A stretch of 64,000 nucleotides of DNA from Cyanophora paradoxa CCMP329 (lineage: Eukaryota > Plantae > Glaucophyta): NCBI GenBank assembly GCA_004431415.1, contig QPMI01000601.1, forward strand, positions 1 through 64,000. The letters run 5' to 3'. The position numbers and the translations under genes are program-made. The notes under the pieces are model-generated. The model ran no database searches, was not told where the DNA came from, and was given only the letters and a program-made list of their open reading frames with translations. This document shows, piece by piece, positions 1-63,802 of the stretch (position 1 is its first letter; each line of letters begins with the position of its first letter).

Positions 1-2147
1 TGTGACACATGCTTATCTCGATTCAGGTCTGAGGCTAAACTCACTGCTCATGTGGACTCAAATAGATGCATTGATTGGAGACTCTCAAAGGGAATCACAC
101 CTAAACCTGAGACCACCATAGAGTTTGGACTGAAAAACCTCAGGAAAACTGTTTGGCTTCCTGTTGTGGTTTACTGCAAGATTGAACATAGAAGCATCCC
201 ATTGATGCATCAAAATCTAAGAGGGAAGTCTCAGCAGTCAACCTGAGAGTAGTCACTGGGCAGATGTTCAGGAGTTTCGATTTGAGGGTCAGGATCCAAT
301 GGGAGGTCTCTTTGAATGCTTGGAGTCCAAAGCAAGAGAACTAATCGATTCCTGTTTACCAACATTCCTATGAATGAACTCACAGATGAGCAGAAAGCAA
401 TTTACAGAGCTACCAAACACTGTTACCTTTGCAGTGAGAGGTTCACTAAGGAGAACTTCAAATGCAGGGATCATGATCACCACACAGGTCATTACATTGC
501 ACCTGCATGCAGAAACTGCAATCTCCATAGGAGAATCTCAAAGCAAACAAAAGTAGCAGTGGTTGTTGACCAAATGGATGACTGTGGGACATTCATTTTC
601 AGAAAAATAGCAGGCATGGGTGATAAAAGCGAATCGAAATCCTTTCGAAAAACTTTGATCAATACCTTTCATTGCAATGGGTCTTTACAAGTTCATTGAT
701 GCAAGTAATTTTATGGAATTTGGGCTGCTGATGTAGATGAGTTAATGGACAAATTCCAAGCCTTCAGAAGGCTTTCACACTCAGTATATGGATTGGACCC
801 AGTTCATTATGTATCTGCACCTGGGTTATCTTGGGATGCTATGCTTAGGACCACCAAGGCAAAATAGAGCTTATAAGTGATGTAGAGCAATACGAATTTG
901 TTGAGAGGGGAATCAGGGGTGGCTTTGCAACAATGCCTTGTAGGTATGCTGAGGCTGATGGTGAGAACTCCCATATAATGCTGTTTGATGCTAACAACTT
1001 GTATGGCTACTGTTTGAGTCAGCCAATCCAGTTGGTGATTTTAGATGGGAGACCGAATTCAACCCACAAGATAACAGATCCAGTTTCCTGGAAGTTGATC
1101 TGGATTACCCAATTAGGCTATATCTAGACCACAGTGATTTCCCCTAATTATTAACAAGAAAATAATAGATTATGCCGAATTATCACAATATCAAAAGAGC
1201 CTATTAGATCTCTCAGGAGAAGAGCTTGATAAGACCCTAAGCTAACTGCAACCTTTGGTTCTGTGACCAACTATGTGATTTCTGAGCCTCTTCTACAGTA
1301 TCTGTTGGACAAAGGGGTGAAACTAAAGAAGGTTCACAGGGTCCTATCATTTACTGTGGCTCCTGTAATGAAACCCTACATTGAGCTGAATACTGAGATG
1401 AGAAGGAAAGCAGTGAATAAATTCGAGGCTGATTTCTATAAACTCATGAATAACTCAATCTATGGGAAATGCATTGAATCTTGCAGAGGTAGATCTGTGG
1501 TTAAGATTGCAAACAGTGAGAAACTGTTTATGAAATATGCAGCCTCCCCATTGGTGAAATCAACAAGTCCCATAAACGAAAAAGCAGTTGCCTTTGAGTT
1601 TTACACAAAGCATGTGAAGCTAGATAAGCCAGTTGCTATTGGGGCTTATGTTCTGGATGCAGCCAAACTGCATAACTACAAGTTCTTCTATGATACTGTA
1701 AGGTCCAATGGACAAAAGCAAAGTTACTATTCCATGATACTGACTCCTTTTGTCTATATATCGAATCTAAGACCTACAAAAAGATATAGAGAATATATCC
1801 TTTAATCTGGACTTAGGAGGACCTAACAGAATGACCCAGGTAAATACAAAAATGAAATGCCAGGTTCTGCTATATTGGAGTATGTGGGTCTCAGAGCCAA
1901 AGTTTACAGTTTCAGAACTGCTGAGATTGAGAGAAGTAAGCTATCTGGGACTTCCACTGAGGAACTCCAATTTAATGATTTTAAGCAGTGTTTATTTGCA
2001 GGTATCAGCAAGACTGTGACTGCAAAGCAGAAGAGAAGGGCAGATCACACAATAATAGATACTGTGAGTAGAAGGGTTGCCCTAAACTGCTTTGATGCAA
2101 AGAGATACATCTTACCAGATGGTATTAATTCTGTTCCTTTTAATTAA
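1..2147 (+). CDS. Protein-primed-type family B DNA polymerase (pPolB) of element A, 5'-partial, broken into ORF pieces by 1-bp indels
   Basis: Pieces carry an HNH/EndoVII-like insert (CYLC..RDHDHHTGHYIAPACRNCN), motif A (LFDANNLYG), motif B (YKLMNNSIYGK) and C-terminal DAKRY. Motif C (HDTDS) reads intact in the second copy. Homologous to 12991-16086. Confidence 0.85.
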
Positions 2148-3533: not shown

Positions 3534-5079
3534 TTTCATAGCCGAAAACTCGTTTTTTCCAAATATATGTATGTGTGATATACATATATGCATATGATAT
3601 ACACATCAACGTGTAGATCTTCTCAAGCGCTTCACAACGCTATGCAGAACGCTGCAAGTTGACTATCTGGTGATGAGATACAAGCGTTTGAAGATGCCGA
3701 TTATCGATTTTTCGAGATTTCGGAATGATGCATCATAATGATGTAATAATGATGTATCATAAACATATAACATATATATATCGCCGTGATCGTCATGATC
3801 TCCCGAGTTCGATGGTGTGTCATATATATCATATACATTTGCATCGTCATTATGACATCATTTCGTAAAATTACACGTCCGTCATCGTCTTTTTCCGCAG
3901 CGAACAGATAAGTGAACAGTTAAGGAGACAACTATTGTAATAGTGGACTGCAACAACAATTGAAAACAAGATCTGTGGGAAAGCTATTGAAAGACAATGA
4001 AGCAAATTGCGAACAATTAAGTGAACAGTTAAGTGGACACCTGTTGGGAGTAGGCAGTGTCTACTCGTTTATCGTGAAACGGTGTCCACTTAACTGTTCA
4101 TTTAACTGTTGACGAAAACCCATGCATTATGACATCATATCATTAAACCCCATACAAAACACTAAAATGCATGTATCTCTTCACCAACTCATCATCTTAC
4201 AAAGATAAAAACAGATTCGGAATCCTCTTAACGAGACCAGCGTGACTATGTAAGTATCATAGGCTCAATAATTCATATGTTAATAAGCATCTCCCCTTCA
4301 TTCCCCCTATTATATAATATTTATATTAAAGTGGACTCAAGGTTGACTCATATTAATCGTAAAAGTAGTAATAGTATATGGATTTTGTTACGAATTCAAT
4401 GCAAGGGTTGACTAAGTGGGTTGAGTTGACTCAAATTTCACAGGAAATATTTGGGACCTAAAGTTTTCTAAAAAGGATTTGAAAAAATGTGTCAACTCCC
4501 CCCACTTAGTCAACCCTGACCATAAACAGTAAGGATTTGAGCTAACAAGTATCACAAAGTGAACATTTTGAGTCCACTTAGAAGATCCACTTTTGAAATC
4601 CAAGTTGATTTTGCTTGAAATTTCAAAGTTGATCTAAAAGTGAGTCCACCCTGATTGATTATGGTAACAAAGTTGACTAAGTTGACTAAGTTGAGTCATC
4701 TTAAGAAATTCAAAGAGACTAAGAGTTCAAAATGTTTATGAAAAGTGAGTCAACTTAGACCACTTCTGATAACAAAGTTAAATATTTAATTGATTTAATC
4801 GGAAAAGAACATGATTTAATCGAATTTATTGATATAATTCCGATTAGATTCATTTAGGATTCAATTAAGATCAATCGAAGTTATTGATATAATTCCGATT
4901 AACTACAATTAAGATACAATATCGATTAATCGAGTTTATCGATATAACATCGATTAAATTAATTGAAAATGCATTTAAAAATATGAAAATTCATGTGAAA
5001 ATTCAAATAAATTAATCGATTTTATTGATATAACATCGAATCACACATATGAATATTCATATTTTAATCCTGAGGCGGA

Positions 5080-5965: not shown

Positions 5966-5968
5966 GAG

Positions 5969-7354
5969 ATGCCAGCAACTGGAAGAATAGTTAGAAGAAC
6001 CACTGAGCAACTGCAAGGTAACCTACTGCCCATCACAATTCCAAAGGAGGAAAAGGGGGAATCTCGAATTGTAAAAAAGTCAGAGATGAAAGAGCTTGTC
6101 CCAGTAGAGATCCCAGTTGCTATTGCAGTGAAAGAAACCAGCAAGATTGCCAAGAGATTCTATGATGTGAGAACTGGTTACAAAGGGCTTCAAGCTATGA
6201 GGGCTGAGTTACCTGATGAATCCTATAAGCAGTTGCAAGAGTTCTATAAAAAACAAGAGGTAGTTCAGATCAATGCACCAGCTATATCTAGAAAGAGAGA
6301 TCCCATGGTCCCAATTAGGCAACCCCTTGATACCTATGTGATTGATTTGCTCTTTTTCCCAGCTTATAAGAAACAAAACAATGGCTATGATACATTTATG
6401 ACTGCAATGGAATCAACACTGAGAACTGGGTATATTATACCTATAAGAGATAAATCAGCTCTCACTACATTGGCTGCATTTAAACAGCTTGAGATGAGAG
6501 TGGCAAGACCAATAGTAAAGGTTCAATCAGATGCTGGAAGTGAGTTCCAAAATCGAATATTCCAGGAGTATTTATCTAGTAAATTCATAGAACACCAAGT
6601 GAGTGGAACTGCTGACCACAGAAGCCAAGGTCGAATTGAAGCCTTTAACAAGCAGATTAAGAGACTGATCACAAACTACTGCATAGCTAATAACACAGCT
6701 AGATTCTTTGATGTGTTAGGTGATATTGAGTATAATTACAATAATACAGTTCACTCAGCTACTAAGATGAAGCCAGGCGAAACTACAGAGGAGCATTATA
6801 GGTATATAGTGGGATTAGAAGATGAAAGATTCAAGAAATCAATAGCTTACCTTGATACCATGCAGCCTGGCATGTTTGTTAGAGTGAAAGTTGAGAAGAA
6901 CCCCTTTGCCAAACAGGGTAACAATTGGTCTAGGATAGTTTACACTGTTGATAGTAGGGAAGGCTTTAAGTTTAAGCTAAGGAGTCCCACTGGAGAGATC
7001 ATAGATAACAGGTTTGCATTCCATGAGCTGTTGCCTGTGAATGCAGTTGAATATCTAGAAACCCCTACAGTGGATGCCTTAGAGCAAGCCAAAGAGGAAG
7101 CTAGGGTTGATGCTGCTATAAGGAGAGAGGGCATAGAAGCTGCTAATGAAGTCCCAGATAAGCCTTTGATAGAGGCTAGGAAGGAGAAGGCTGGAAAAGT
7201 TAGCAGGGAACTCAAAAAGCTCACTATAGCAGGGACACAGAAGCTTTCAGAAGTGAATAGCCAGAGATGGTATAATGACTTTCAGACTACTAAGGAGTCA
7301 TATACAGCCCCTAAACCTCAAAGAACACTAAGAGAAAGGACCAAAACTAGCTAG
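5969..7354 (+). CDS. Retroviral-type (rve, DDE) integrase of element A, intact copy
   Basis: 461 aa; YVIDL, VQSDAGSEF, GRIEAFNKQIK and YNNTVHSATKMKP motifs typical of Polinton integrases. Confidence 0.92.
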   Translation: MPATGRIVRRTTEQLQGNLLPITIPKEEKGESRIVKKSEMKELVPVEIPVAIAVKETSKIAKRFYDVRTGYKGLQAMRAELPDESYKQLQEFYKKQEVVQINAPAISRKRDPMVPIRQPLDTYVIDLLFFPAYKKQNNGYDTFMTAMESTLRTGYIIPIRDKSALTTLAAFKQLEMRVARPIVKVQSDAGSEFQNRIFQEYLSSKFIEHQVSGTADHRSQGRIEAFNKQIKRLITNYCIANNTARFFDVLGDIEYNYNNTVHSATKMKPGETTEEHYRYIVGLEDERFKKSIAYLDTMQPGMFVRVKVEKNPFAKQGNNWSRIVYTVDSREGFKFKLRSPTGEIIDNRFAFHELLPVNAVEYLETPTVDALEQAKEEARVDAAIRREGIEAANEVPDKPLIEARKEKAGKVSRELKKLTIAGTQKLSEVNSQRWYNDFQTTKESYTAPKPQRTLRERTKTS

Positions 7355-8862: not shown

Positions 8863-8935
8863 ACACATATGAATATTCATATTTTAATCCTGAGGCGGAA
8901 CGCCGAGGGATTAAAATATGAATATTCATATGTGT
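8863..8935. other. Terminal palindrome/hairpin of element A
   Basis: 28-bp arm ACACATATGAATATTCATATTTTAATCC (8863-8890), 17-nt centre TGAGGCGGAACGCCGAG, perfect reverse complement at 8908-8935. Confidence 0.92.
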
Positions 8936-11197: not shown

Positions 11198-11348
11198 ACA
11201 CATAGGGATACCCCTGATCCAAGCCCTCCGGCCTTCGGCCTACAGGCTTGGATCAGGGGTATCCCTATGTGTGCGCGTTTCAGGTACTAGGGTAGTAAGC
11301 ATTTATTTCAGGTCTTAGGGTATTAATCATGTCTTTTGGGCACCAGTA
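11198..11348. repeat. Left TIR of element B, including terminal hairpin 11198-11272
   Basis: 28-bp arm ACACATAGGGATACCCCTGATCCAAGCC, 19-nt centre CTCCGGCCTTCGGCCTACA, perfect return arm. The block is the reverse complement of 38835-38971 with 2 mismatches. Confidence 0.95.
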
Positions 11349-11609: not shown

Positions 11610-12979
11610 TCATCCTGCCCTCCTCCTTGATCTCGTGGAAATTGCTGGAGCTTCATAGGTCTCCTTTGAATTCGAGAAATCTCTATACCACCTTACTGCC
11701 TCTGCTCCCCCTGCTAATCTCTCTGTTCCCGCCACCCTCAATCTCTCCAACTCTCTCCCTTGTTTCTTCTTCTTCCCTGCTCTGTCCTCCAATAATGGTT
11801 TATCTGGCACGTTTGGCGCCCTCTCAATCCCCTCTCTGGCCAAAAGTCGCTCTGTTCTGGCCTCTTTCTTTGCCTCTTCAATGACATTTATTGATGGCGC
11901 CTCCAAGAACTCCACGGTTTCCACTTTCTGTAATTCGTAGTGGGCATAAAGTCGATCTATTAGTTTGCCAGAAATGTCCCTTAGTTTAAATTTGAACCCC
12001 TCCACTCCTTCTATTGTGAATATTTCGCGGCTCCAATTATTCCCTTGTTTGGCAAATGGGCTCTTCTCTATTTTAGTTCTCACGTGGCTCCCTGCTGGAT
12101 AGTCCTTTAGATATTCAATTGACTTCATGAATTTCTCGTTTTCTTTTGCGAGTATGAGGGGAACATGTACCTCTGTGGTCTCTGCTGGTTTCATCCCTGT
12201 TGCTGAGTGGATGGTATTATTGTAGTTGTAGGCAAAATCTTGGAGCTTGTCGAAAAACTTTACAGTATTATTCGCTATACAATACGAGTTAATTAGCTTC
12301 TTTATTGTGCGATTAAAGGCTTCTATTCGGCCTTGGCTATTGTGATCTCCAACCTGCGAAACTTGGTGCTCAATCATCTGGGCTTCTAAATGGTCTTTAA
12401 ATACCTTGTTCAGGAATTCGCTCCCAGCATCACTTTGTATCTTCACAATTGGACGCGGGACTTGTTGCTCAAGCTCCTTAAATGTGTTCATTGTGCTCTC
12501 TGCTGTCTTGCCCCTCATGGGAATTATAAAGCCCAGTCTGGTGGTATTTTCTACAGCTGTGAGGAACGTGTTGTAGCCTTGATTCTGTTTGCTGTACGAA
12601 GGATAAAAGATTAGGTCTATGGCATAGCAGTCGAGTGGCTGTCTTATTGGGATATAGGCAGTCTTCTTGGCAGATGGGAGGGGTTTATTTATCTGGTTGA
12701 TTTCTTGGGCATCATAGAATCTACGGATTGTCTTTCTTGGCACATCTGGAAGCTCTTTGGCCAATGAAGCAAGGCCTTTAAATCCTACCTTGGTGTCATA
12801 GAATGTCCTTGCTAAGGGATCCAAGTGGGCACAGCAATGGCAGTTGGGATATCCGCAGGAACTAAAGCTTTGAGGTCACTCTTTTTCTGAATGCGACCCC
12901 CTCTCTCCTCTTGAGGGATTGGGATTGGCAATATACTCACATCGTACTCTGTTTGTCTGCGTGTGATCTTTGATGACAT
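11610..12979 (-). CDS. rve (DDE) integrase of element B (one apparent frameshift near 12825)
   Basis: YAIDL, IQSDAGSEF, GRIEAFNRTIK, YNNTIHSATGMKP. The upstream frame gives MSSKITRRQTEYDVSILPIPIP, homologous to the N-termini of the A and C integrases. Confidence 0.9.
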
Positions 12980-12990: not shown

Positions 12991-15900
12991 TTAGAAAGCA
13001 ATCTTTGACATCTTCACATTGAAGGTCTCATTTTCAAGCTTCTTTTGGACAGTCATTTCGATTTGCTTGGGTTTTTGGTGGAGCACATGGTCTTTATAAT
13101 CTTGGAAAGAAAGATCTGTTTGAATGGTCTCCTTACAAACACCTGCCAGCTTTTTGATTTCCTCATCATCTGTTTTAATGCTGTAGCATTTCGGCCTTAC
13201 CCCAGCATATTCAGTAATGGTTCTGCCCTCAAACTCATCTTTGAACTTGCCAAGCTCTGTGGGGTGGGTGTCAATGTCTTGTAGGTCTTTCGCTATAGTT
13301 TTCGAATTTATTTGAAGGCAAAGCGAATCTGTATCAGTAAAAAGCAGTTTACAGTCTGGCCATTTCCGCTTGATGGTGTTATAATAATAATCAAATAGCC
13401 GCAGCTTGGCAAGATCTAAAACAACTGCCCCAATTGCTATGGGCTTATCTAACTTGACATCTTTTTGTAGCATTTCGAAGGCTACTGCTGAATCGCTTAG
13501 TCTTGTTTCTGCTTTGAGTAGGGGCGATCTGGCGTATTTCATAAATTGCTTTTCGTTGGTGGCAATCTTGACATTAGACCTTCCTCTCACTTTCTCAATG
13601 GTTTTGCCGAAAAGGCTATTGTTCATGATTTTAAAGAAGTCCTTTTCGGGTTTGGAAGGGGCTGCTCTGCGGTTTTGGGCATTGGATTCGACGTAGGGCT
13701 TCATAAAGGCAGCCTGAGTAAATGTTAGCACCCTGTGGATTTTGGTGACCTTTAAGCCTTGTGCTACCATGAATTGGAGCAAAGGTTTCGACACCACAAA
13801 GTTGGATATGTCTTGGCAGGCTGCTTGTAGCCCATCTTCTGTTCTCTTGATAACAAGAGGTAGCTCTTTGTGGAGTTGATGGAGGTGCTGGGGATAATGG
13901 ATGTCAACTTCTAAGATGGCCCCCTCTGCTGATGACAGGTCGTAATTTGAGGGTTCTGGGGACCATTGGAAATTCGAGAGGGGTAGCGTTTGGGACAGGG
14001 CATATCCATATAGGTTATTGGCATCCAAATATATAATGTGTCTGTCCCTTTCCTTTTTGGCATATTTATGATTCATAATCGAAAGGCCTCCCCTGATCAT
14101 GCCTTCAACCATGTTGTACATATCAAGGTTGGAAAGAAGCTCGATTTTAGGCTTGGTAATCGATAGCATGCTGTCCCACGAAAGCCCCGGACTTGAGACA
14201 TAGTGGGCAGCATCCATCCCAAAAGTTTTGTGTGATTTCTGGCGGAAAAGCTGGAACTTTTCTTGAAGGTCATTGACATTCTGGACGCCATAATCAATAA
14301 AGTTTTTGATGTCAATGAATTTGAAACAGCCCCAGGTGATCGACATGTAGTTGTCAAACGATTTCGCGAGGACTTCCACCCTTTTTTCGGGATTTAAGGC
14401 GACTGCCTTGAATATCTGCGTTCCAGATAGGGACAGATCATTGGTCACTATGGGAATCTTGGTGAGATTGCTGGTGCGTCTGTGGAGATTACATTTGCGA
14501 CATGCTGTGCCTACAAAATCGCCAGTTTGGTGGTCGTGATCCCTCACTTTATAATTGTCTTGGGTGAAATCACCTTGGCAGATGTAGCAGGTTTTAGCAA
14601 GGTAATGGGTACGTTTCTGCTCTTTGGTCAGTGACATTGGGATGTTGGTAAATAGGGCTTTGAATAGCTCTGGGGCTGTGCTGTCGAGGGTACTCAGGAG
14701 CTCAAAGATGTTGGAGGGGGTTTTAGTGAGTACTACTCTATTATTATGAAGAGCTGTCAGTGAGATTGATTTGATCTTGAACATACCAGAAATATCTGTT
14801 TCATAATCGAAATAGCAATAGGCAATCACGGGGAGGAATACAGTCTTTGAGAGATGTTTAAGACCAAATTCAATGAATGTGGGTTGTTTTGGGGTCTCTC
14901 CAGCACTTGTCTTCCAATCCACACAACGTTTGCTTTGAATGTGGGATTGAAGCTTCTCCTCAGTCTTGAAGTGGTTGGAACAGGTTTTACAGAAATGGAG
15001 TCGCTGCTTATCATTCTTAGCTAAGACTCTGGACATGCTGAATATTGTGGTATAATGACTGTTACCATTTTCGTCTGTAATTAGCAGCAGATCCACTTGG
15101 TGTTTCCTGTTCCTTGAGGAGCTGTTGTGGAGTAGATTAATTTCTTCTGTAGAGTTAGAGGGGTCGTAAATATTAACAGAGATTGCTGGATTGAGATTTT
15201 CAAAGAGATCAATAGTATCAGCATCTGCCTTTACAGGAAACTCAATACCCTCGAAATTTAGTTCTTTTTTGAACCACCTCCTGTATTGGGAAGTCTCATT
15301 GCGCTTGTGGCTATTTACTTCGTCCTTGTGAATATAAGAAAGGATAGCATACTCAAAGCATCTATTGTCCTTGTTATTAACATTGACAATGGCTCGTTTA
15401 TTTTTGAGCCACTCTGGGAGTGGGATAAAAGCACCTCCTGAGATGGGTTTAAAGGACAGAACAATCACTCTCAAAGCCTCAATGCTTTGGAGTTTATAGC
15501 TGTCTGTGACATTAATTTGCGACTGGCATTCCTTAGCCAATTTCGCAGTTTCTTTAGTGAGGGTTCGAGATCTTGTCATGATAGCATAGGTGCTGTAAAT
15601 GTGCTTGGTAATAAAGTCTCTCGAATTGTTTGCTTTTGAAAAGCGACAGACAAACGTAAAGCGAGTTTTAATCGACATCTGTGAATTGATGGCATCTTGG
15701 AGCCTTGTGTGGAGTTCCTCAGAGTAGGTGTCTATAAACTCTTGAGTGGTCAGGATCTGGTGGTGAGCCCTGATGGTAAAATCAATGTATTTATTATTAA
15801 GAGCACGATGTTCATTTATTAAGGTAGTGTATTCATCTCCTCTGACTTGAGTTGTGGTAGTTTGTTCGACTTGGATTTGGCCTAACCTGTCTCCCTCATC

Positions 15901-16086
15901 AAGGGTCTCGATTTTCCCTAATAGCTCTCGATTGAGAGCTTGAAGCCCCTTGAGCTTCTTGTTGGTTTGGCTTATGTATGATTCATATTCGCTTTCACTG
16001 ATGGAGTGGTTCGCAAGGAGGAAGGCCAGATTTCCAAGAATCTTGTCCTGAAGCTCCTTAATTTGGTAGTGGCTGGGGCGGGGCAT
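12991..16086 (-). CDS. pPolB of element B with N-terminal region, vOTU-like domain, C2H2 finger and HNH/EndoVII-like insert
   Basis: NKDNRCFEYAIL...NSHY (OTU-like Cys/His), CKTC..H, CYIC..RDHDHQTG..ACRKCN, YLDANNLYG, FKIMNNSLFGK, FTDTDS. Likely ATG at 16086 (MPRPSH). Confidence 0.92.
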   Translation of the reverse strand: MPRPSHYQIKELQDKILGNLAFLLANHSISESEYESYISQTNKKLKGLQALNRELLGKIETLDEGDRLGQIQVEQTTTTQVRGDEYTTLINEHRALNNKYIDFTIRAHHQILTTQEFIDTYSEELHTRLQDAINSQMSIKTRFTFVCRFSKANNSRDFITKHIYSTYAIMTRSRTLTKETAKLAKECQSQINVTDSYKLQSIEALRVIVLSFKPISGGAFIPLPEWLKNKRAIVNVNNKDNRCFEYAILSYIHKDEVNSHKRNETSQYRRWFKKELNFEGIEFPVKADADTIDLFENLNPAISVNIYDPSNSTEEINLLHNSSSRNRKHQVDLLLITDENGNSHYTTIFSMSRVLAKNDKQRLHFCKTCSNHFKTEEKLQSHIQSKRCVDWKTSAGETPKQPTFIEFGLKHLSKTVFLPVIAYCYFDYETDISGMFKIKSISLTALHNNRVVLTKTPSNIFELLSTLDSTAPELFKALFTNIPMSLTKEQKRTHYLAKTCYICQGDFTQDNYKVRDHDHQTGDFVGTACRKCNLHRRTSNLTKIPIVTNDLSLSGTQIFKAVALNPEKRVEVLAKSFDNYMSITWGCFKFIDIKNFIDYGVQNVNDLQEKFQLFRQKSHKTFGMDAAHYVSSPGLSWDSMLSITKPKIELLSNLDMYNMVEGMIRGGLSIMNHKYAKKERDRHIIYLDANNLYGYALSQTLPLSNFQWSPEPSNYDLSSAEGAILEVDIHYPQHLHQLHKELPLVIKRTEDGLQAACQDISNFVVSKPLLQFMVAQGLKVTKIHRVLTFTQAAFMKPYVESNAQNRRAAPSKPEKDFFKIMNNSLFGKTIEKVRGRSNVKIATNEKQFMKYARSPLLKAETRLSDSAVAFEMLQKDVKLDKPIAIGAVVLDLAKLRLFDYYYNTIKRKWPDCKLLFTDTDSLCLQINSKTIAKDLQDIDTHPTELGKFKDEFEGRTITEYAGVRPKCYSIKTDDEEIKKLAGVCKETIQTDLSFQDYKDHVLHQKPKQIEMTVQKKLENETFNVKMSKIAF

Positions 16087-16234
16087 GGTTGGGGGGTTGT
16101 ACTTATATCTAGGTACGAAAATAATCTTTAAATGTTTATATTGTGGACAATTCGCAGCGCTCAATGAGAATAAACCCCGCGACCCCTATTTAAAAAGAAA
16201 TCTCAACTATACTATAAGGGGAACACATCAAGCA

Positions 16235-16540: not shown

Positions 16541-18892
16541 ATGGCTCCCTCATTCAGCTCAACCAACCCCAATGGCCACACTTTCACTCTCACTGAGCGC
16601 ATCCACAAAGCTAAGCTCAGGTGGGTGCTGGAGAATTTTGAGAAGCTTCAATTCAGGGCTTGTACTGACAAGACCCAGACCAAGACACTGGCCAAAAAGC
16701 TCTACAAGGAGACATCTGCCAATGGATCCCACACCTGTACCTACAAACAGGCCAAACACAACACTGGGAGGTACTTTGTGGGTGAAAAGCACCCCAGTCT
16801 CCAAGGCATTTGTAGGGAAATTCGCCACACCATCTCAAGGGATTTCTATGAGGATATTGACATTGTGAACTGTCACCCTGTGCTGCTGCTTCAGTACTGC
16901 CAGAAAAATGGTATTGCCTGTCCTACCCTCCTCAGCTATGTCCAGAATAGAGCACAAATTCTGGATGAGATCTGCTCAATTAGTGGAGAGGACAAGGAAA
17001 CCTGTAAGCAGAGTCTCCTCAGCATCATCAATGGAGGTGCTGGAAGAGACATTTCCAAGCAATTGGAAGGTCACAAGTGGTTCACTGATCTCAAAGCTGA
17101 GATTGTGAACATCCATCAACTGGTGGCCACAAAGGAGGTCAAATTCCATGCCATTGCCAAGAGGAAGAAGGAGAACAACTTTAATGTTCTTGGCTCTACC
17201 ATGAACATGCTGCTCTGCTCTCTGGAGAACACAGTTCTAATGGCAATGTGTGAGTACTTCAGCTCCATTGGCCTTCAGGTTGATGTGCTGGTCTTTGATG
17301 GGTGTATGGTGCGCCAAGATCCAAAGATCATCAGCTGCCTCAAGGATGCCTCCATCTACATTCAAGCCCAGACAGGCTACAAGGTAGATCTCATCATCAA
17401 GCACATGATGTCAGGATTCCAAGTGCCTCCTGATCTTGAAGATGTTGAGGATGGTGCCCCTGCCAGATTTGCCAAAGATGACAATGAGGCCTCACAGCTT
17501 TTCATGGATGACATCAAGCACATTGTCAAGAAGTGTGAGGGGAGGGTCTTTGTCAAGACTGACAACCTGTGGACTGAAAACAAGAAGCAGGTTGAAAGCA
17601 CTCTAATGAGGATGGCACTGACATCCAACATATGTAAGTTGGGCCCAATGGGGCAGGAGGAACCTTACAGTGGGAATGTGGCTCAGGCCAAACACATCAT
17701 TGAGGCAACCCTTGCCAAGCTTGTAGACTCCCCTACTTTCGTCAAGGATATGTGGGAATCCACCAATGGGAAGCTTTGCTTCAGGAATGGTGTCTATGAT
17801 TTCTCATCCAAGCAATTTAAACCCTATGATGTCTGCCCTGAGGTTATGACCTGTGTGAGGGTAGAAAGAGATTTTCCAGTCCATGAAGATGGTTCCATCA
17901 AGATACCATCTACTGAGGCTTTGGACACTCTCTATAATGTGATTCTTAATCCAATTTTTGGAGAGGAAGCAGCTCCCCAGTACCTTGGGCTGATCTCCAG
18001 AATGATGGCTGGAAAAGTGGGTGACAAGCTATGGGGGGTGAGTGTTGGTGAGAGAGATTGTGGAAAGGGTGTGAGTGTTTGCCTAAATGAAGCTACATTT
18101 GGGCATGGATATGTCAAGACAGTAAATAGTGAAAACTTCCTGATGTCAAGAACTGGACATGGAGATGAGCAAAAGAAGCTGTCTTGGATGCTGGATAGCG
18201 AATTTGCCAGGCTTACATTCACTCAAGAGATGACAATTGATGTTGAAGACAAGAACATCAAGATTAATGGCAACATGATCAAGAAGTTTGTGAGTGGTGG
18301 TGATACCCTATGTGCCAGAAAGAATTACAGAGATGAGGTTAATTTTAAGGTTCAAAGTGGGTTGTATATGATGTGTAATGATCTCACACAGATGTCACCT
18401 GCTGATGCTTATGAGAATATGGTGGTTATCAAACATCCAAATAAATTCGCCTCACAAGAGACATTGGATGCCCTCCAGCTGCCATTCCTCAAGTTGGCAA
18501 GGGATGATATCAAGATGTTGTGCCAACAGGAGGACATCATGAATGCCTATATGTATGAGCTGTTCCAAGCCTACAAACCCAAGAAATTTGAGCCATATGG
18601 AAGGGTTTTGGAGGACATCAAGAACTACAGGTTGGAAGGTGGTGATGAACTGCTGATCATGAAGGAGTTCTTCATCATTACAGGGGACAGGGATGATACC
18701 ATCACAAATGATGATGTTACAAGATTTATCAGAAGCAAGAGGCTCAACATTACTGTAAGCAAGGTTAGAGATAGGCTGGAGAGAATGGGTGCTAAGTATG
18801 AGAAACATATAGGACAGAAGAAAGGTATATCCTCTGGTGTTAGAGGTTTCAGTGGGGTAAAATTGATGTCTTTGGAGGATGTAGATGAGTAA
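16541..18892 (+). CDS. TVpol-like (PolA-related primase-polymerase) fused to D5-like superfamily 3 helicase
   Basis: 783 aa; GRYF..SLQG..REIR, EDIDIVNCHP and LVFDGCMV motifs in the N-half; LCFRNGVYD, Walker A-like GERDCGKG, and motif C-like MMCND in the C-half. Confidence 0.8.
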   Translation: MAPSFSSTNPNGHTFTLTERIHKAKLRWVLENFEKLQFRACTDKTQTKTLAKKLYKETSANGSHTCTYKQAKHNTGRYFVGEKHPSLQGICREIRHTISRDFYEDIDIVNCHPVLLLQYCQKNGIACPTLLSYVQNRAQILDEICSISGEDKETCKQSLLSIINGGAGRDISKQLEGHKWFTDLKAEIVNIHQLVATKEVKFHAIAKRKKENNFNVLGSTMNMLLCSLENTVLMAMCEYFSSIGLQVDVLVFDGCMVRQDPKIISCLKDASIYIQAQTGYKVDLIIKHMMSGFQVPPDLEDVEDGAPARFAKDDNEASQLFMDDIKHIVKKCEGRVFVKTDNLWTENKKQVESTLMRMALTSNICKLGPMGQEEPYSGNVAQAKHIIEATLAKLVDSPTFVKDMWESTNGKLCFRNGVYDFSSKQFKPYDVCPEVMTCVRVERDFPVHEDGSIKIPSTEALDTLYNVILNPIFGEEAAPQYLGLISRMMAGKVGDKLWGVSVGERDCGKGVSVCLNEATFGHGYVKTVNSENFLMSRTGHGDEQKKLSWMLDSEFARLTFTQEMTIDVEDKNIKINGNMIKKFVSGGDTLCARKNYRDEVNFKVQSGLYMMCNDLTQMSPADAYENMVVIKHPNKFASQETLDALQLPFLKLARDDIKMLCQQEDIMNAYMYELFQAYKPKKFEPYGRVLEDIKNYRLEGGDELLIMKEFFIITGDRDDTITNDDVTRFIRSKRLNITVSKVRDRLERMGAKYEKHIGQKKGISSGVRGFSGVKLMSLEDVDE

Positions 18893-22194: not shown

Positions 22195-22977
22195 TTATAG
22201 ACCGCGTTTATATCGCATTAACTTATTACTATGAACTTGGCTTTTGACTTCTTTTCGCCCTTCTTCTTTCTCTGGTGGTTTAAGCTCATCTTCTTTCTTC
22301 TTTGGCTTCCTGTGGAACCGTGGAAATGGGAAATCTTTGACCAAATCCGCTTTATCTACGAAATATTTCACAGAATAATCGGCGGATGACCAAATTAGAA
22401 ACTGATAGGAATGTACATATTCTTCAAACATTTTATAGAAAACATCTTTGTCCCGCATTATATTGTATTCTTCCTCAATGGCTTCAAGCTCCTTTCTATT
22501 GGCAGCGCTTAGGAACATAGCATAATCTGAGTTGACGCGAATTGTTGATGAGACCTTCCTTAGCTTTTGTGTGATACAGATGATGGATATTTTCAAATGT
22601 CTGCCCATAGAGTACAATTTGTTGATTATTTTATCGCGAGTGAGGTCGACCAAGTCATTATCAATTAGGTCGTCCAGTACAACTAAGAGTTGATTAATCG
22701 GCTCTCCTTTTTCTATTTTCTCTTGTCGATTTTCCAAAACCTTTTCGATGTAAGGAGCATCCCATTTGCCAAGCTGAACACTTGCTACCTTGTTCCAAAA
22801 GTTGTTAAAAGCCGTTCCACTGATTACAAGGACGACATCAATCTTTTTGGCGTCATGGAGCTGCTTGAGCCAATACTTTACAGCCTCTGATTTACCAGTT
22901 GCTGATTTCCCGATAGCCAAAACACGAAAAGGAGGGTTTATCATCTCACCAGCCACGAATTCATCCAGGTCACCCAT
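22195..22977 (-). CDS. A32/FtsK-like genome packaging ATPase (element B)
   Basis: Walker A GKSATGKS, Walker B LVVLDD, GRH..IS...TQ, IRVNSDY. Confidence 0.92.
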   Translation of the reverse strand: MGDLDEFVAGEMINPPFRVLAIGKSATGKSEAVKYWLKQLHDAKKIDVVLVISGTAFNNFWNKVASVQLGKWDAPYIEKVLENRQEKIEKGEPINQLLVVLDDLIDNDLVDLTRDKIINKLYSMGRHLKISIICITQKLRKVSSTIRVNSDYAMFLSAANRKELEAIEEEYNIMRDKDVFYKMFEEYVHSYQFLIWSSADYSVKYFVDKADLVKDFPFPRFHRKPKKKEDELKPPEKEEGRKEVKSQVHSNKLMRYKRGL

Positions 22978-24087: not shown

Positions 24088-25456
24088 TCATAGATTGATC
24101 CGCCGCAGCCCGTCCTTGTCCACTATGATAAAGCTGTGCATGAGAGCGCGAACATTGACATCAATTGCCTTGTCAGTGGGCATGTAGAGAGTGAGGAATG
24201 AAGATGAAGAATTGGTCAGGTCAACATAGCCAGACTGGGCAATATTGCGAATTGCCTTCTCACCATCAAGACAGAAACTCATACCCGAAAGAACATAGCG
24301 ATCAGCAACCTTATCCATATTAGAGCATTTGAAGACATCAGCAATTAGCTCAGCACCTTTGAGGAGCGAAATTGGCTCAGTGGCAAAAAGTCGCTGGCCG
24401 TTTATTTCAATTGTGAATGTGATCTCTTTGGAGTTGGAGTAGGTCTTGAGAACACTGTGGGAACCATCAGCTTTGTCAACAGTAGCGTTATCACGAACTG
24501 AAACAAGCAGAGCATAAACGAGACCTGAGATTTGGGAGAGGTTAACTCGATTTGGTTGGGCACCACCCTTGGCTTTCATATCACTGACATCCACAAATCC
24601 AATATCCAGAGCAGGGATAGCCATGCCAGTTGTCTTTACCTTCTCAATAACAGTAGCGAAAAGCTCATCAGACACATTAACAGCATACATATAAAGGCGA
24701 GGAGAAGTAATTTTAATTTCAACGTTTGGCGCACCAAGATTGAAAGTGGTGATGTTTTGGCCAACATGTGCCAGCACAGATTCAGCAGGTGCGACGCCAA
24801 GCCCATCGTCCTTGTCCCCATCAATGGCTGTGTCCCCAGCCTTAGGAAGAGTACGACCACCATAAGAAGTCTCAACATAACCCTTCCCTACATCCTTGAA
24901 CCAAACAGTTACTACCATTTCACCAGACAGAGCACCAAGAGGTAGGTAGTGGTTTAGCCAAGGCACAGGAATTTCAACAAAGAATGAGCCACCAAGTCGG
25001 TTGGTTCCATGGCGGGGATGCCGTGAAGCATGCCCATTGATCGCTTCTTTTTGGCAAGCTGATCCTCACTATAATAGACAAGAGGGAAATGAGCAAGGAA
25101 ATCAGAAGGGATATGGTAGGTGTATGACCCATAGGTAATTTCAAGTCGCTGAACCAAAGCACCAACTGGGCGAGTATACCCATTTCGAACAAGATCAGCA
25201 TCACCAAAAGTGATAGCTGGAAGGTCGAAGGCAAGTTCAAGTTTGCCACAGAAATTGTAGCGAGGGAGTTTGAATGAAATGCGATTTCCAACACTATTTT
25301 CAAAAGTATTGCTCGGGTTCACAACAACAAGAACGGGCTTAGACTTGGATTCAAGACCAAGCATTAGGGAGTTATCCAGAAAGAAGGCCTTGGCCTCCTC
25401 TGGGTTGTTAGGGCTTCTTTCAACGAAAGGCGCTGGAGGGTCGACGTAATATCCAT
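24088..25456 (-). CDS. Major capsid protein of element B (two apparent 1-bp frameshifts)
   Basis: Joined frames are collinear and highly similar to the intact 466-aa D gene 60753-62153. Size, beta-rich pattern and position between penton-like genes and the ATPase fit a double jelly-roll MCP. Confidence 0.75.
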
Positions 25457-25510
25457 GATTTTCTCTTTTATTATACTGTAACATAAAAAAATTACGAATG
25501 AACCTAGTGT

Positions 25511-38834: not shown

Positions 38835-38971
38835 TACTGGTGCCGAAAAGACATGATTAATACCCTAAGACTTGAAATAAATGCTTACTACCCTAGTACC
38901 TGAAACGCGCACACATAGGGATACCCCTGATCCAAGCCTGTAGGCCGAAGGCCGGAGGGCTTGGATCAGGG
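38835..38971. repeat. Right TIR of element B; outer hairpin arm truncated
   Basis: Reverse complement of the left TIR. Inner arm 38911-38938, centre TGTAGGCCGAAGGCCGGAG, outer arm only 14 of 28 bp. Confidence 0.92.
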
Positions 38972-48405: not shown

Positions 48406-48407
48406 GA

Positions 48408-52277: not shown

Positions 52278-52302
52278 AAAATGAAAAAAACGACAGATAT
52301 AT

Positions 52303-52617: not shown

Positions 52618-52656
52618 CTCTTTTATATTTACCGGAGAAAATAATTTCGGGGTTTG

Positions 52657-54036: not shown

Positions 54037-54055
54037 TTCTTCTAATTAAACCTGT

Positions 54056-56316
54056 TTATTTTTTGCTGCAATTGCACCCGTGATGCGCGAGTTGACAATT
54101 GTCTTTAAGATGTGGGCGCCTGTTGTTTATGCGATCCACGACGAGCTTGTAATTCGGATCTTGCGGCTCAATCGGAATCGGAAGGGAACAGAGCGCACAG
54201 GCGCCCTTCTGTTGCTTCTTGCGCTCTAATATCCACTCCGGCGTAATATAATCCGCCTCGTCGAAATCGCGCCCGGCACGCTGATCCTGGCATTTATAAC
54301 CGCGGATCTTCGTTTTCAGATATTCGATGTAGTCATGCTTTCCTTGGAACTTGTGAATCGGTGTATAAATCAGCACAGTAGACAGATCGCGGTTACGAGT
54401 GAGCGCGGTATAGAACCATTCGCGAGTGGTATAGCGGAACGTAGCCTCACAAATGACAATGCCCGAATCAAGTGTGAGACCTTGCGTTGAATGACCTGTT
54501 CCTGCATAAGGAGAGAAAAATGTTCTAACATCGCGCACGGAACCTCGAACGTGACGCCATCGAAAACGTCAGTTAATGTGACCATTTGCTTTGTGATTTT
54601 GGTGATTCGATAGGTGTAATTCGTGTATGCGTTAACAGACTCGCCCTCAGACCGCGAAATGCGTAGATACCTGCGACAAACGACTTCCAGACCTTTGTAG
54701 AATTTGATGCCGTTGACCTCTACGGTTGCAATATTTACTTTTCGTCTATCGTGCATCAGTTTGTTGTAGGCTAAGGTCATTTCGTTTCTGTAAGCGATGC
54801 CAAAGTAGCCGTCGGGAATAGCGTTTAGATCATTAATTGTCGGCAACCCGTATTTCGAGATAATCTGTGCGGCTTCCAGTCCGTTTTCGAAGAGATCCTC
54901 TTTAATCGCCCGAATTAATTCACGGTCTGTCTCCTTCTTGTGCCGCTTGTTAATGCGTAGACTCAGAACGTTCGGGAACATGCTTTGCACCGCACGCTTA
55001 TAGTAGCCCTTGCGATCAGAAACCGATAGCTCATCATTAATCGGTTCATTTTGATAGGTGTCGCCATTAGCTAAATATTTGATATCCGGATAGCGATCGA
55101 TAAACGACTTGATCTTAGCGAGATCTTTTACAGAATACGCGAATATCTCGTCGAACATAATGTGGCTGAACTCGGAGACGAACGCCCTCTGGTCTTTTTC
55201 GCTCATAGCCTCTTCGTAGGTCTGATCATTGGAGACACGGATCCCGAGAACATTATACAAAGTACGAACGGTAATATTCTCGATTCCGCGGACTTTGAGA
55301 GAGTCCCTTAGCTCTGCGCACTGTTTGTTATAGGGGCAAATAACTAAGCAATTCGACTTTTGAGATGCGAAACAGTTAACTCCGAGGGTCGATTTTCCAC
55401 TACCGGGCATGTCAGCAAGGACAAGCATACGATTATGGAGCTCCGCGACCCGATTAAAGCACTCCGGATTAAATTCGTCCCTCAGCGAGAACCGGTTAAT
55501 GAGTGTGTCGGGATCCTGAATTTCGAGAGTTACACCCCGTGGTGGGCGGAGTGCATTCTCAGGGCATCTTTTCCCGGGAATATAGCTGAATTTGCCCATG
55601 TTCTCAAACGCATTTCGGTCGAACTCTTTCTTACTTGTCCATGAACCTTCGATATATAGGCAATCCGTTCTGATCCCGGCAACCTTGTGCCCGCGCGCTG
55701 TCAGGCGCTTGTATTGCGCGAACATATTAGCGCGGTTACGATCGTAAATATGAAAGTGGATAGGAAGGAATCCGTTAACGAGCTCGCGGTGGGAGCTGAT
55801 CTTAACGAAATAGATGTGACCTTCGAATTCGCTAAGAGCTTTGACACGTTTCGAATTCTTAGGATTGAAAGTAAACACCTCTACTGTTCCTCCGCATTCT
55901 TGGGCGAACCTTTCAGCCTCGGCACGGTTGTAGAACATTTTCGTGGATGTTTGCGAGTCTTGGAATTTGCCGAGCATTCCGATCTCTTTCACTAAAATGT
56001 GCTTCTTGTCCGTGTTTTGAATGTCGCTTGACAGCACTTTCTTCATCTCAGCGATCGACGTATTGGGCACCAAATGCGAAGGCTCCGCGACCGCGATAAT
56101 CTCTATCTTGTCCTTTACGTCCGCCCAGTGCATGGCGAGAGTGTAGCCTGTCATGAAATTATAACAGCGACCACTCACTGAAAATGCGCGATCCAGAATA
56201 ATTTCGACTCCATCAATCTTGCGAGACATGGCGGCATCATAATCTACATCCTCATCGTCGGCGAAAGTCGCTTGCTCTCTCTCAAACGCGACCACACGCA
56301 CGTAGTAGATCGCGTA
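54056..56316 (-). pseudogene. 3' half of the PolB-SF1-HNH fusion gene of copy 2, interrupted by element D
   Basis: Matches 42086-44347; identity stops at GATCGCGTA|ACACATA. Confidence 0.88.
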
Positions 56317-56423
56317 ACACATAAATAAAAACAAATTTTAATCCCTCGCTCTATCGCTCAATTCGCGCTTCGCGCTCATTTCGCTCTGTCGCTCAGGATT
56401 AAAATTTGTTTTTATTTATGTGT
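56317..56423. other. Terminal palindrome/hairpin of element D
   Basis: 28-bp arm ACACATAAATAAAAACAAATTTTAATCC, 51-nt centre, perfect return arm at 56396-56423. Confidence 0.92.
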
Positions 56424-57551: not shown

Positions 57552-57910
57552 TTAATCGAGGGTAACAGAGGTAACGGATTTTTCCCAACCTCTCCCCTAA
57601 GATCGAGATTTTCAAAAAGTTGCGCAAAATCCGTTACCTCTGTTACCCTCGATTAAATCCGTTACCTCAATTAAAATCTGTTACCCTTACTGAAAATAAG
57701 AATGAATCTGTTACCCTTACCATAATAAGTAATGAGTTCTTGAATAATTAATCTTTGTTTAATGATAAACAATTGAGGGTAACAGAGGTAACGGATTTTT
57801 CCCAACCTTTCCCCTAAGATCGAGATTTTCAAAAAGTTGCGCAAAATCCGTTACCTCTGTTACCCTTACTGAAAATAAGAATAAATCTGTTACCTTTGTT
57901 ATCTGTTACC
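57552..57910. repeat. Two copies of a stem-loop with GAGG(G)TAAC iteron-like arms
   Basis: GAGGGTAACAGAGGTAACGGATTTT ... AAAATCCGTTACCTCTGTTACCCT at ~57557-57650 and ~57775-57866, plus extra TGTTACC copies. Confidence 0.85.
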
Positions 57911-60752: not shown

Positions 60753-62153
60753 ATGGATGTTACCTCGACCCTTCAACGTCTTTCTCTGAAAGAGGCGCTT
60801 ACAACGCCCGAGGAAGCCAAAGCGTTCTTCCTCGATAACTCGCTTATGCTTGGTCTTGAATCGAAGACGAAACCCGTTCTGGTAACCGTTAGTCCATCGA
60901 CAACCTACGATAACAACGTTGGTCAACGCGTTTCTTTCAAACTTCCCCGCTACAACTTTGTCGGTAAAATCGAACTCGCTTTCGATCTTCCCGAACTAAC
61001 TGCTTTTACTGGTGATGACGACCTGGTGCGAAATGGTTACACTCGTCCCGTCGGTGCGCTTGTAGAGCGTCTTGAATTCTCGTATGGCTCGTATACCTAC
61101 CACGTGCCGTCTGATTTCCTGGCGATTTTCCCACTGGTCTACTATTCTGAGGATCAACTGGCGAAAAAGAAGCGTTCAATGGGAATGCTTCATGGTATCC
61201 CCGCTCACGGAACCAACCGTAAAGGTGGCGCTTTCTTCGTCGAAATTCCGGTGCCGTGGTTGAACCATTATCTACCACTTGGCGCTCTCTCGGGCGAAGC
61301 CGTTATCACTGTGTGGTTTAAGGAAACTAACAAGGGTTACCTTGAAACTTCTTATGGTGGTCGCTCTCTTCCGGTTGTTGGATCCACTGCTGCGGATAAA
61401 TCATCAGATGATGGACTTGGAAATGCTACGAGCGTTACACTTGCTAATGTTGGTCAAAACATCACCACAGGCGGTATTACTGGGTTCGAAGTTGCCGGAA
61501 CTGTTCCACCAATGACCCATTACATCTCCATTAAGTCTCCTCGTCTCTACATGCATGCTATCAACGTTTCTGATGAACTGTTCGCAACTGTTATTGAGAA
61601 GGTTAAGACCACAGGGATGGCTATTCCCGCTCTCGACATCGGTTTCGTCGATTCTATCGCTGTTGCTGCAAAAGGTAACACTCAACCCAACCGAATCAAT
61701 CTTAGCCAAATCTCTGGTCTGGTTTATGCTCTTCTTGTCTCTGTTCGCGATGCCGATGGTGTCGATACTTCCAATGGTTCTCACAGTGTCCTTAAAACGC
61801 TTGCGAATGCGAAGGATATCACGATGACCTGTGAGATTAATGGACAGCGTCTTTATTCGACGGAGCCGATCCCGCTACTCAAAGGTGCGGAACTCATCGC
61901 CGATGCCTTCAAATGCTCGAATATGGACAAGGAAGCAAACCGTTACGTCCTTACTGGATTCCCATTCTGTGTTGATGGTGAGAAGGCGATTCGCAACATT
62001 GCCCAATCTGGATATGTTGACCTTACGAACTCGTCTTCATCATTCCTCACTCTATATCTTCCTGCTGATCGCACAATTACTGTTAACGTTCGCGCTCTCA
62101 TGCATTCGTTCATTATTGTCGATAAGGATGGAATTCGTCGTATAAATTTGTAG
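60753..62153 (+). CDS. Major capsid protein of element D (466 aa, intact)
   Basis: Most conserved gene among B, C and D. VSFKLPR...KIELAFDLP N-terminus, VEIPVPW.NHYLPLGAL..E..ITVWF, and size and context fit a double jelly-roll MCP. Confidence 0.78.
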   Translation: MDVTSTLQRLSLKEALTTPEEAKAFFLDNSLMLGLESKTKPVLVTVSPSTTYDNNVGQRVSFKLPRYNFVGKIELAFDLPELTAFTGDDDLVRNGYTRPVGALVERLEFSYGSYTYHVPSDFLAIFPLVYYSEDQLAKKKRSMGMLHGIPAHGTNRKGGAFFVEIPVPWLNHYLPLGALSGEAVITVWFKETNKGYLETSYGGRSLPVVGSTAADKSSDDGLGNATSVTLANVGQNITTGGITGFEVAGTVPPMTHYISIKSPRLYMHAINVSDELFATVIEKVKTTGMAIPALDIGFVDSIAVAAKGNTQPNRINLSQISGLVYALLVSVRDADGVDTSNGSHSVLKTLANAKDITMTCEINGQRLYSTEPIPLLKGAELIADAFKCSNMDKEANRYVLTGFPFCVDGEKAIRNIAQSGYVDLTNSSSSFLTLYLPADRTITVNVRALMHSFIIVDKDGIRRINL

Positions 62154-62226: not shown

Positions 62227-62958
62227 ATGCCTGTCACGATTGAAGAGTTTGTAGCTCGTGCAAATGCCCAGCATAACGGTAAATTTGATTACTCAAAAGT
62301 TCAATTTGAAAAATGCAAGGATAAGGTTCTAATCACTTGTTTGACCTGTAAGGTAACATTTGAACAACGTGTTGACCATCACCTTAGGGGATCAAGTTGT
62401 AAAAAATGTAGCTTTCAGCGTTTAGGAAATGAACGGAGAAAAGAGATGGACACTTTCATAGAGCAAGCAAGAAAAACACACGGTAACAAATATTGCTATG
62501 ATAAAGTGGAATATGTTAAAGCCCAAACACCGGTATGTATTAAATGTAACTCTTGTAACAAAGAGTTCATGCAACCCCCTATAATTCACATTCGGAATAC
62601 CGGTTGCCCCTTTTGTAGAACTTCAAAAGGTGAAGACGAAGTCTGTAAAGTGTTAGATTCTATTGGATTGGACTACAAACAACAACATATATTCAAAGAT
62701 TGCCGAAATAAGTTTCCATTGCGATTTGATTTCTTCATTGAATCTCTAAGGCTTGCAATCGAATATGATGGAATTCAACATTTTGAGCCAAGGAAGTTTT
62801 GGGGCAATGAAGATGCCGAAGAGCGGTTTAAACAAGTTCAAATGTGTGATGGAATAAAGAACCGCTACTGTGAGGCAAACAATATTAAACTTCTAAGAAT
62901 TCCATACACTGAAAAAGATATCAGTGGATGTGTTACACGGTTTCTGTCTTCACTTTAA
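62227..62958 (+). CDS. Putative free-standing endonuclease (two repeats + Vsr/DUF559-like domain)
   Basis: FDFFIES..LAIEYDGIQHF; homologue of 23038-23988. Confidence 0.8.
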   Translation: MPVTIEEFVARANAQHNGKFDYSKVQFEKCKDKVLITCLTCKVTFEQRVDHHLRGSSCKKCSFQRLGNERRKEMDTFIEQARKTHGNKYCYDKVEYVKAQTPVCIKCNSCNKEFMQPPIIHIRNTGCPFCRTSKGEDEVCKVLDSIGLDYKQQHIFKDCRNKFPLRFDFFIESLRLAIEYDGIQHFEPRKFWGNEDAEERFKQVQMCDGIKNRYCEANNIKLLRIPYTEKDISGCVTRFLSSL

Positions 62959-63019
62959 ACCATTATCAGTAAGATTTCGTTATTTTTATCTATCTTTATT
63001 AAGAAGAATCTACTACGCC

Positions 63020-63802
63020 ATGTCTGACGTTCCCGAATTTAATGCTGGTGAGATGATTAAACCCCCTTTTCGCGTATTAGCAATCGGAAAAAGCGCAACG
63101 GGCAAGTCAGAAGCGGTGAAGTATTGGCTAAAACAACTTCACGATGCGAAAAAAATAGATGTGGTTCTCGTTGTAAGTGGGACGAGTTTCAATCATTTCT
63201 GGAATGATGTTGCTACATTACAGCTTGGTAAATGGGATGCGCCTTACATTTCTAAACTTCTCGATGAAAGACAAGAGAAAATAGAGAAAGGAGAACCTGT
63301 AAACCAACTATTAGTTTTGCTCGACGATTTAATAGATAATGAGTTAGTCGACCTCACCCGTGATAAAATCATTGGTTCTTTGTATTCCCGTGGTCGCCAC
63401 TCGAATATATCGATTGTCTGTATCACACAGAAACTGCGTAAGGTTTCTTCAACCATTCGCGTCAATTCAGATTATGCAATGTTCCTAAGTGCCGCCAATC
63501 GCAAAGAACTGGAAGCCATTGAAGAAGAATACAATATCATGCGGGATAAAGACGCTTTCTATAAGATGTTTGAGGAATACGTTCACTCCTATCAGTTTCT
63601 CATTTGGAGTTCTGCGAATTATTCGGTGGAATACTATGTTGATAAAGCGGAACTCGTTAAAGACTTTAAGTTTCCTCGGTTCCATCGCAAACCAAAAAAG
63701 AAAGAAGATGAATTAAAACCGCCTGAGAAGGAGGAAGCGCCGAAAGAGATTAAAAGCGCTGTTCACACGAATAAGTTGATGCGATATAAGAGGGGATTGT
63801 AA
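63020..63802 (+). CDS. A32/FtsK-like packaging ATPase (element D)
   Basis: GKSATGKS, LVLLDD, GRH; nearly identical to the B ATPase. Confidence 0.92.
   Translation: MSDVPEFNAGEMIKPPFRVLAIGKSATGKSEAVKYWLKQLHDAKKIDVVLVVSGTSFNHFWNDVATLQLGKWDAPYISKLLDERQEKIEKGEPVNQLLVLLDDLIDNELVDLTRDKIIGSLYSRGRHSNISIVCITQKLRKVSSTIRVNSDYAMFLSAANRKELEAIEEEYNIMRDKDAFYKMFEEYVHSYQFLIWSSANYSVEYYVDKAELVKDFKFPRFHRKPKKKEDELKPPEKEEAPKEIKSAVHTNKLMRYKRGL

Follow-up and report, generated by a model that had tools for sequence, protein, structure and literature searches.

Nested virus-like elements and their genes

The window, i.e. the whole 64-kb stretch of DNA that was analysed, contains four nested virus-like elements, termed A, B, C and D. 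The sequence of C is the insertion target of both B and D. The elements are arranged as follows:

before base 1 to 8935: element A, with a 3.8-kb tandem duplication inside
11198-38971: element B
56317 to beyond the window edge: element D
element C: rve, a pPolB-S1H-type helicase and an ATPase; in part duplicated

Two areas, 1265-8899 and 38977-56316, are tandem duplications with 99.8-99.9% identity and with frameshifts, and each area contains one broken hairpin. These duplications may be genuine or may be errors of long-read assembly. The left part of B was present in 20 of 22 sequencing runs among those listed, all from one organism. Contig depth relative to unique flank, which serves as a rough guide only, was ~40x for A, 12-15x for B and ~8x for the D centre. 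In three of four runs a contig of about single-copy depth linked an A-type end to a B-type start (8935 / 11198), which suggests insertion beside the ends of other elements.

The following genes for replication, integration and virion formation were identified in A, B and D:

5969..7354, plus strand: A rve integrase, D-D-E kept
11610..12824, minus strand: B rve integrase, D-D-E present, 54% identical to that of A
1..2084, plus strand: A pPolB pieces with EndoVII domain; the N-terminus precedes the window, and the gene is broken in this copy
12991..16164, minus strand: B pPolB with terminal-protein-like fold, vOTU Cys/His, EndoVII motif and eroded exonuclease
16541..18892, plus strand: B second replicase, D5-like helicase with an N-terminal domain carrying PolA/TV-Pol-like motifs (read by eye)
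22195..22977, minus strand: B A32-type packaging ATPase
24088..25484, minus strand: B major capsid protein gene, in pieces, 75-79% identical to that of D over two long pieces
60753..62153, plus strand: D major capsid protein, nearest look-alikes in double-jelly-roll-type clusters
62924..63802, plus strand: D A32-type packaging ATPase

Among the genes of Polintons/Mavericks, pPolB (in B, with related pieces in A), rve (A and B) and the ATPase and capsid protein (B and D) are thus present, while a maturation protease gave no Pfam or PHROG match among the ORFs scanned. The only relative found for the D capsid protein was a EukProt gene model (57%), which makes a microbial eukaryote the probable host. 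For an HUH Rep/NS1 nickase there was no family match in the 46 of 93 ORFs that were scanned, A and D being incomplete in the window. The preliminary description of this sequence had presented A, B and D alike as integrase-encoding; rve genes are indeed found in A and B, but the integrase and replicase of D lie outside the window.

The B pPolB is predicted to have a phi29-like fold; its N-terminal alpha/beta domain is positioned as is the terminal-protein domain described in PMC11071308. For that domain, the linking Ser or Tyr is assigned to the loop that connects helix 2 with strand 4, where a Gly or Pro is close by (PMC11071308, excerpt). In B this loop (residues 218-222) reads N-V-T-D-S, and Thr220 and Ser222 remain. 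When B was aligned with 24 relatives out of 120 listed, the position of its Asp221 was Ser/Thr in 23 of the 24 and the next position was Gly in 22. Furthermore, ExoII of the B enzyme is altered and ~100 residues around ExoIII are absent; the A pPolB span is equally short. The vOTU Cys/His are intact in B. The D-H..N motif of EndoVII (HNH) is also intact in B, as it is in 24/24 aligned relatives and in 18 of 28 viral loci. One locus with this motif, L022, starts with AGTATAGT and has a plain end, a GSGW loop, an rve gene and no hairpin. Resolution of the ends by the pPolB HNH domain, as proposed earlier, is therefore unsupported, because the motif is general among relatives, including the plain-ended L022. 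Such nuclease inserts of pPolB are treated as homing endonucleases (PMC11071308, excerpt).

The second replicase of B had been overlooked before. It matches the D5-like helicase in PHROG (E 1e-11) and in Atlas, and represents a non-pPolB replication gene, as in the Halocafeteria elements discussed below. The PolA/TV-Pol-like motifs were read against PMC2579912 (excerpt). The model of the PolA-like domain is of low confidence (pLDDT 42.5) and does not confirm the fold, and the domain had no sequence match in the PDB.

Several further features were observed. The rve integrase of C (40684-42066) has Asn at the position of the third catalytic Glu of A and B and may be inactive. C also encodes a 1436-aa Tlr1-like polymerase-SF1 helicase fusion (42086-46396), the second copy of which is cut by D. 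Genes for S-adenosylmethionine decarboxylase are found in B and C (38254-38664, 39912-40304), and B carries a gene for a patatin-like phospholipase (27741-29030). An inverted 12-nt copy of the B end (ACACATAGGGAT) is located at 16413-16424, immediately upstream of pPolB. Because of this copy, the rve and pPolB block at 11198-16424 is flanked by inverted end motifs, and it may be a captured module. Directly after the stop codon of the B primase-helicase there is a 47-bp perfect stem with a 47-nt loop (18899-19039), followed by two 31-bp tandem arrays (19744-19991, 20204-20482). Long subterminal inverted repeats are found in each element (8225-8338, 11395-11489, 38725-38819, 57552-57656, 57771-57866); the loops of those in B and D have a common TCTTAGG/CCTAAGA core. 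Origin or promoter function of these repeats is possible.

Terminal palindromes, their position and their strand polarity

The ends of A, B and D consist of the following palindromes and repeats:

8863..8935, plus strand: A right terminal palindrome, 28-bp arms, centre T-GA-GGCG-GAA-CGCC-GA-G
5043..5079, plus strand: partial A end, broken within the GAA loop, at the junction of the 3.8-kb tandem duplication
11198..11272, minus strand: B left terminal palindrome, 28-bp GC-rich arms, 19-nt centre TGTA-GGCC-GAA-GGCC-GGAG
38911..38971, plus strand: B right terminal palindrome, outer arm limited to 14 bp; oriented towards its end in the same way as the left palindrome
11212..11348, no strand: B terminal inverted repeat (TIR), partner 38835-38971, 98.5%; weaker similarity further inward
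56317..56423, minus strand: D left terminal palindrome, 28-bp arms, 51-nt centre, five GA/GA registers, tip GCGC-GAA-GCGC (includes GCGAAGC)

Rechecking reproduced the coordinates and sequences of the A, B and D ends given previously, as well as the 28-bp arms with differing interiors in A, D and B left. The full palindrome claimed for both ends of B was confirmed for the left end, but the right end keeps just 14 bp of the outer arm. The partial end at 5043-5079, broken in the loop, is additional to those in the preliminary description.

The arms of A, B and D are perfect over 28 bp, from ACACATA to CC; in the present copy of A the perfect stretch is 30 bp, because two flanking bases pair too. 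Compared pairwise among the three, the arms are identical at 15-21 of 28 positions and, in the middle 19, at 6-12. The centres differ threefold in length (17, 19 and 51 nt), and the loop is GAA in all three full ends. The D centre has five GA/GA dinucleotides exactly opposed, plus one T.G and one C.A, and its GAA loop is on the minus strand. A has a single GA/GA register. The G.A zipper ascribed to all three elements does not hold for B, which has T.G, G.A, T.G and A.G and no tandem GA/GA. Short internal palindromes are present in the arms of A (8866-8881) and B (11204-11215), which could permit a branched fold; the D arm contains none.

Several lines of evidence place these palindromes at the very ends of the elements. 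An uninterrupted copy of the D target is preserved in the window, and it resumes at 44348, exactly where D begins (empty site 44347|44348). The empty site of B is at 50597|50598. Other insertions of D on public contigs have differing flanks and begin at the same base of the element. The palindrome extends to the last base of the element. AATGTC occurs directly before ACACATA on one D flank contig and directly after TATGTGT on another; it probably represents a 6-bp TSD abutting the full palindrome, if the two contigs are taken as one site. The palindrome sits inside the TIR and adjoins the presumed TSD, as in the Halocafeteria elements. A TIR together with a 6-bp TSD, as in Polintons/Mavericks, is represented here by the TIR of B and by the 6-mer of D with its presumed pairing. 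In short-read contigs, the junction of A with unique flank was found as one contig with zero differences in 4/4 runs. The D centre was recovered as one difference-free contig plus a minor one-letter variant, in runs other than X5 and X18, where a gap in cover carries no meaning. Two variants of the D stem, similar in depth and each differing by a single letter, also occur in the contig data; no conclusion is drawn from them. Each of the three families of integrated Polinton-like viruses truly ends in such a palindrome.

Outside the loop, the symmetric ladder of the three full ends has 19 non-Watson-Crick positions, namely 14 G.A or A.G, 4 T.G and 1 C.A. These counts refer to the strand whose 3' end is terminal; the opposite strand has T.C and a TTC loop. 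In 5/5 ends GAA and G.A are located on the host-joined 3'-terminal strand, with one orientation throughout. Together with the D empty site, this bears out the earlier claim of a strand-specific structure at true termini. Tandem sheared G.A pairs between G:C pairs form stable DNA structures (PMC10085684, excerpt), and GNA triloops are stable in DNA, with nuclease-resistant GNA mini-hairpins (PMC13037366, excerpt). A palindrome built with G.A would fold strongly on one of its strands and weakly on the complement.

The number of GA/GA registers in the D centre was compared with shuffled sequences. Five registers were obtained in 2 of 200,000 shuffles (p about 1e-5); with GA dinucleotides held intact, the figure was 139 of 500,000. 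The single register of A is by itself not significant (p=0.07). DNA energies calculated with ViennaRNA, which scores tandem G.A as loops, favoured the 3'-terminal strand in 3/3 elements by small margins (0.4-2.7 kcal/mol). Long inverted repeats are frequent in these elements (15 rows with stems of at least 16 bp). A signature scan for a GNA loop with G.A pairs and a long stem gave only four matches in the window, each at an end and each on the 3'-terminal strand, and 0 matches in 111 related loci (1.47 million strand-bases). The palindrome feature is real and selected-looking.

A search for relatives of these ends gave no further example. The full end pattern had 0 matches in viral contigs, and the B integrase as sole query yielded no viral locus. 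No such hairpin was present around relatives of pPolB (28 loci), of the integrase (3 viral loci and the best 80 of 141 metagenomic ones) or of the primase-helicase (2 loci). Most of these loci are short or break off ahead of an end, so the lack of a match does not show that such ends are absent elsewhere.

Models for the hairpin ends

The preliminary description had suggested a fold-back 3' end or a hairpin telomere. The former is the best reading, to which we assign a probability of roughly 0.5: the G.A-rich centre would fold back stably, but only on the 3'-ending strand, and so cap that end and prime DNA synthesis, and rve would join TGTGT-3'. A lone genome strand, displaced or excised, would have the G.A hairpin, which is the strong form, at the 3' end, and its weak T.C counterpart at the 5' end. 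The 3' hairpin would prime the second strand, and the polymerase would read through the weak 5' copy. Each new 3' end would regain the G.A form, and therefore no flop isomer and only one orientation would be expected. The inner arm would be the template for re-copying the outer arm, so that the arm stays perfect while mismatches in the centre persist. The rve integrase would then attach TGTGT-3' to the host with a stagger of 6 bp; on closed ends it would nick after TGTGT, and repair would copy the hairpin out as a palindrome. The 28 bp from ACACATA to the first T.G/G.A step could act as a ruler for an end-binding protein.

This fold-back is supported by the polarity, with G.A or T.G at 18 of the 19 non-Watson-Crick positions when the 3' strand is read, by the small energy margins in favour of that strand, by the known stability of sheared G.A blocks and GNA triloops, and by the arms, whose length and edges are kept while their middles diverge. 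It is also supported by the palindrome abutting the target (D empty site, other D flanks, AATGTC), by the D centre forming one difference-free contig at ~8x unique depth, a rough figure, and by one A copy being broken inside the loop. Further support is provided by the genes of B, since its pPolB has T-D-S where relatives keep Ser/Thr and Gly, and its D5-like primase-helicase is a replicase of the type that a preprint ties to palindromic ends. Against it, the evidence consists of integrated copies, and no free genome, nick or primer was seen. The terminal-protein domain of B still folds and keeps Thr220/Ser222 and the vOTU Cys/His, which leaves room for protein priming. The ACACA end would suit slide-back priming. 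In addition, the three families come from one organism and B has no tandem GA/GA; the D replicases and the N-terminus of the A pPolB lie outside the window, and no nickase was identified. Relatives elsewhere showed no such end, though few of their loci reach one. We tentatively consider it possible that this lineage swapped protein priming for a polarised hairpin end, with neither flip/flop nor an HUH enzyme, and that its rve integrase opens the hairpin 28 bp from the cap.

Rather unlikely, in our view, is protein priming on open duplex ends, where the 3' hairpin would serve only to shield the displaced strand and to restore a short duplex origin instead of a long-range panhandle. It would yield the single orientation without an extra enzyme and fits the phi29-like pPolB of B with its TP-like fold and its vOTU Cys/His, as well as the nuclease resistance of GNA mini-hairpins (PMC13037366, excerpt). 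However, B lacks the Ser/Gly conserved in the linking loop, extension of a base-paired 3'-OH would be expected, and palindromic ends in bioRxiv 10.64898/2026.07.28.741278 (excerpt) occur mainly with non-pPolB replicases, one of which B has. The single orientation in 5/5 integrated ends also makes the telomere alternative of the preliminary description improbable, namely a free genome with covalently closed, poxvirus-like flip/flop telomeres, of whose concatemer junctions, cut by a resolvase such as EndoVII, the integrase would take the G.A isomer alone. A perfect duplex with a mismatched loop cap does recall poxvirus telomeres, where mismatches matter for packaging (PMC8956199, excerpt), and the catalytic motif of the B EndoVII is intact. 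Yet EndoVII is also found in the plain-ended Polinton L022, a flop form would carry T.C mismatches, and no strand-switch joints occurred among those listed in contigs of 8 run comparisons, which is a weak test.

Alternatively, the hairpin could act on single-stranded DNA as a signal recognised by the primase-helicase, integrase or packaging machinery, as in phages G4 and N4, and its 3'-OH would be no primer. GCGAAGC-type hairpins are found at G4 priming sites and in N4 promoters (PMC13037366, excerpt), a primase-helicase is predicted in B, and the fixed arm length suggests a protein footprint. We nevertheless hold this to be quite improbable, as it leaves the perfect outer arm up to the last base unexplained and sits poorly with the threefold range of centre lengths (17, 19, 51 nt). 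That the palindromes are functionless, either accidental fold-back products or assembly artefacts, is largely refuted and very improbable: arm length, edges, loop and polarity are identical across three families despite diverged arm middles, and the A junction and the D centre were unchanged in short-read contigs from independent runs. The near-identical tandem duplications and frameshifts of the window would speak for it, and accidental annealing is named as an alternative in bioRxiv 10.64898/2026.07.28.741278 (excerpt).

These ends make the hairpin-priming model sharply testable, since strand, primer 3' end, integrase joining site and 28-bp spacing can all be read from the sequence. If the fold-back reading is true, tandem sheared G.A pairs would serve here in nature to restrict the function of a palindrome to one strand, a DDE integrase would act on hairpin ends, and the elements would capture a transition from protein priming to self-priming.

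Comparison with known systems

The general idea of terminal palindromes and hairpin priming is not new and is contained in a 2026 preprint. There, terminal palindromes within TIRs and beside TSDs are described for virophages (subtypes 1, 2, 5 and 6) and PLV subtype 4 of Halocafeteria seosinensis, tied to non-pPolB replicases and certain RVE integrases, and hairpin priming is proposed (bioRxiv 10.64898/2026.07.28.741278, excerpt). The elements described here share the palindrome in the TIR next to the TSD, the RVE integrase and, in B, the non-pPolB replicase, but A and B carry pPolB as well. The excerpted main text of the preprint contains 0 occurrences of mismatch, flip, GAA or sheared; its figures or supplements may show similar centres. 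Its screen, which allows a gap of at most 10 and no more than 4 mismatches (excerpt), would miss D, and palindrome screens with short gap limits overlook such ends.

G.A-polarised ends of Polintons, PLVs or virophages were not found in the literature searched, which covered few subscription papers, and the excerpts of PMC11296320 and PMC12747079 contain nothing on terminal hairpins of PLVs. The 'hairpin' of bioRxiv 10.1101/2022.05.25.493380 (excerpt) refers to protein beta-hairpins, and this work was rejected as a precedent. The G.A polarity, the single orientation and the fixed arm length were thus not found in print.

Polintons/Mavericks with an EndoVII-containing pPolB (PMC11071308, excerpt) have TP, vOTU and nuclease insert, rve, A32 ATPase, capsid protein, TIRs and a 6-bp TSD in common with the present elements. 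Unlike them, B has an eroded linking loop and exonuclease and a second replicase, and no maturation protease was found among the ORFs scanned. Polinton termini are simple, AG...CT, with short AGT-type repeats. AGT-type repeat ends were seen in loci L022 and L023, whereas the ends described here are not simple but ACACATA...TATGTGT palindromes.

Individual traits of the hairpins have counterparts elsewhere. The d(GCGAAGC) mini-hairpin and the CGAG blocks (PMC13037366, PMC10085684, excerpts) resemble the D end, as GCGAAGC is part of its tip and its stem is made of pyrimidine-GA-purine-like blocks, but they were described for phage origins, promoters and oligos, not for the ends of integrating viruses. 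The left-end hairpin of parvoviruses (MVM, LuIII; PMC1185569, excerpt) has the 3' fold-back primer, a GA/GAA purine mismatch bubble and a single flip orientation. Parvoviruses are, however, small ssDNA viruses with the HUH nickase NS1, whereas no such enzyme was found among the ORFs scanned here and integration is by rve with a TSD. Poxvirus telomeres (PMC8956199, excerpt) are likewise perfect duplexes closed by an incompletely paired tip in which mismatches are important, but poxviruses carry both the flip and the flop isomer, while the present ends have one orientation and G.A-specific mismatches.
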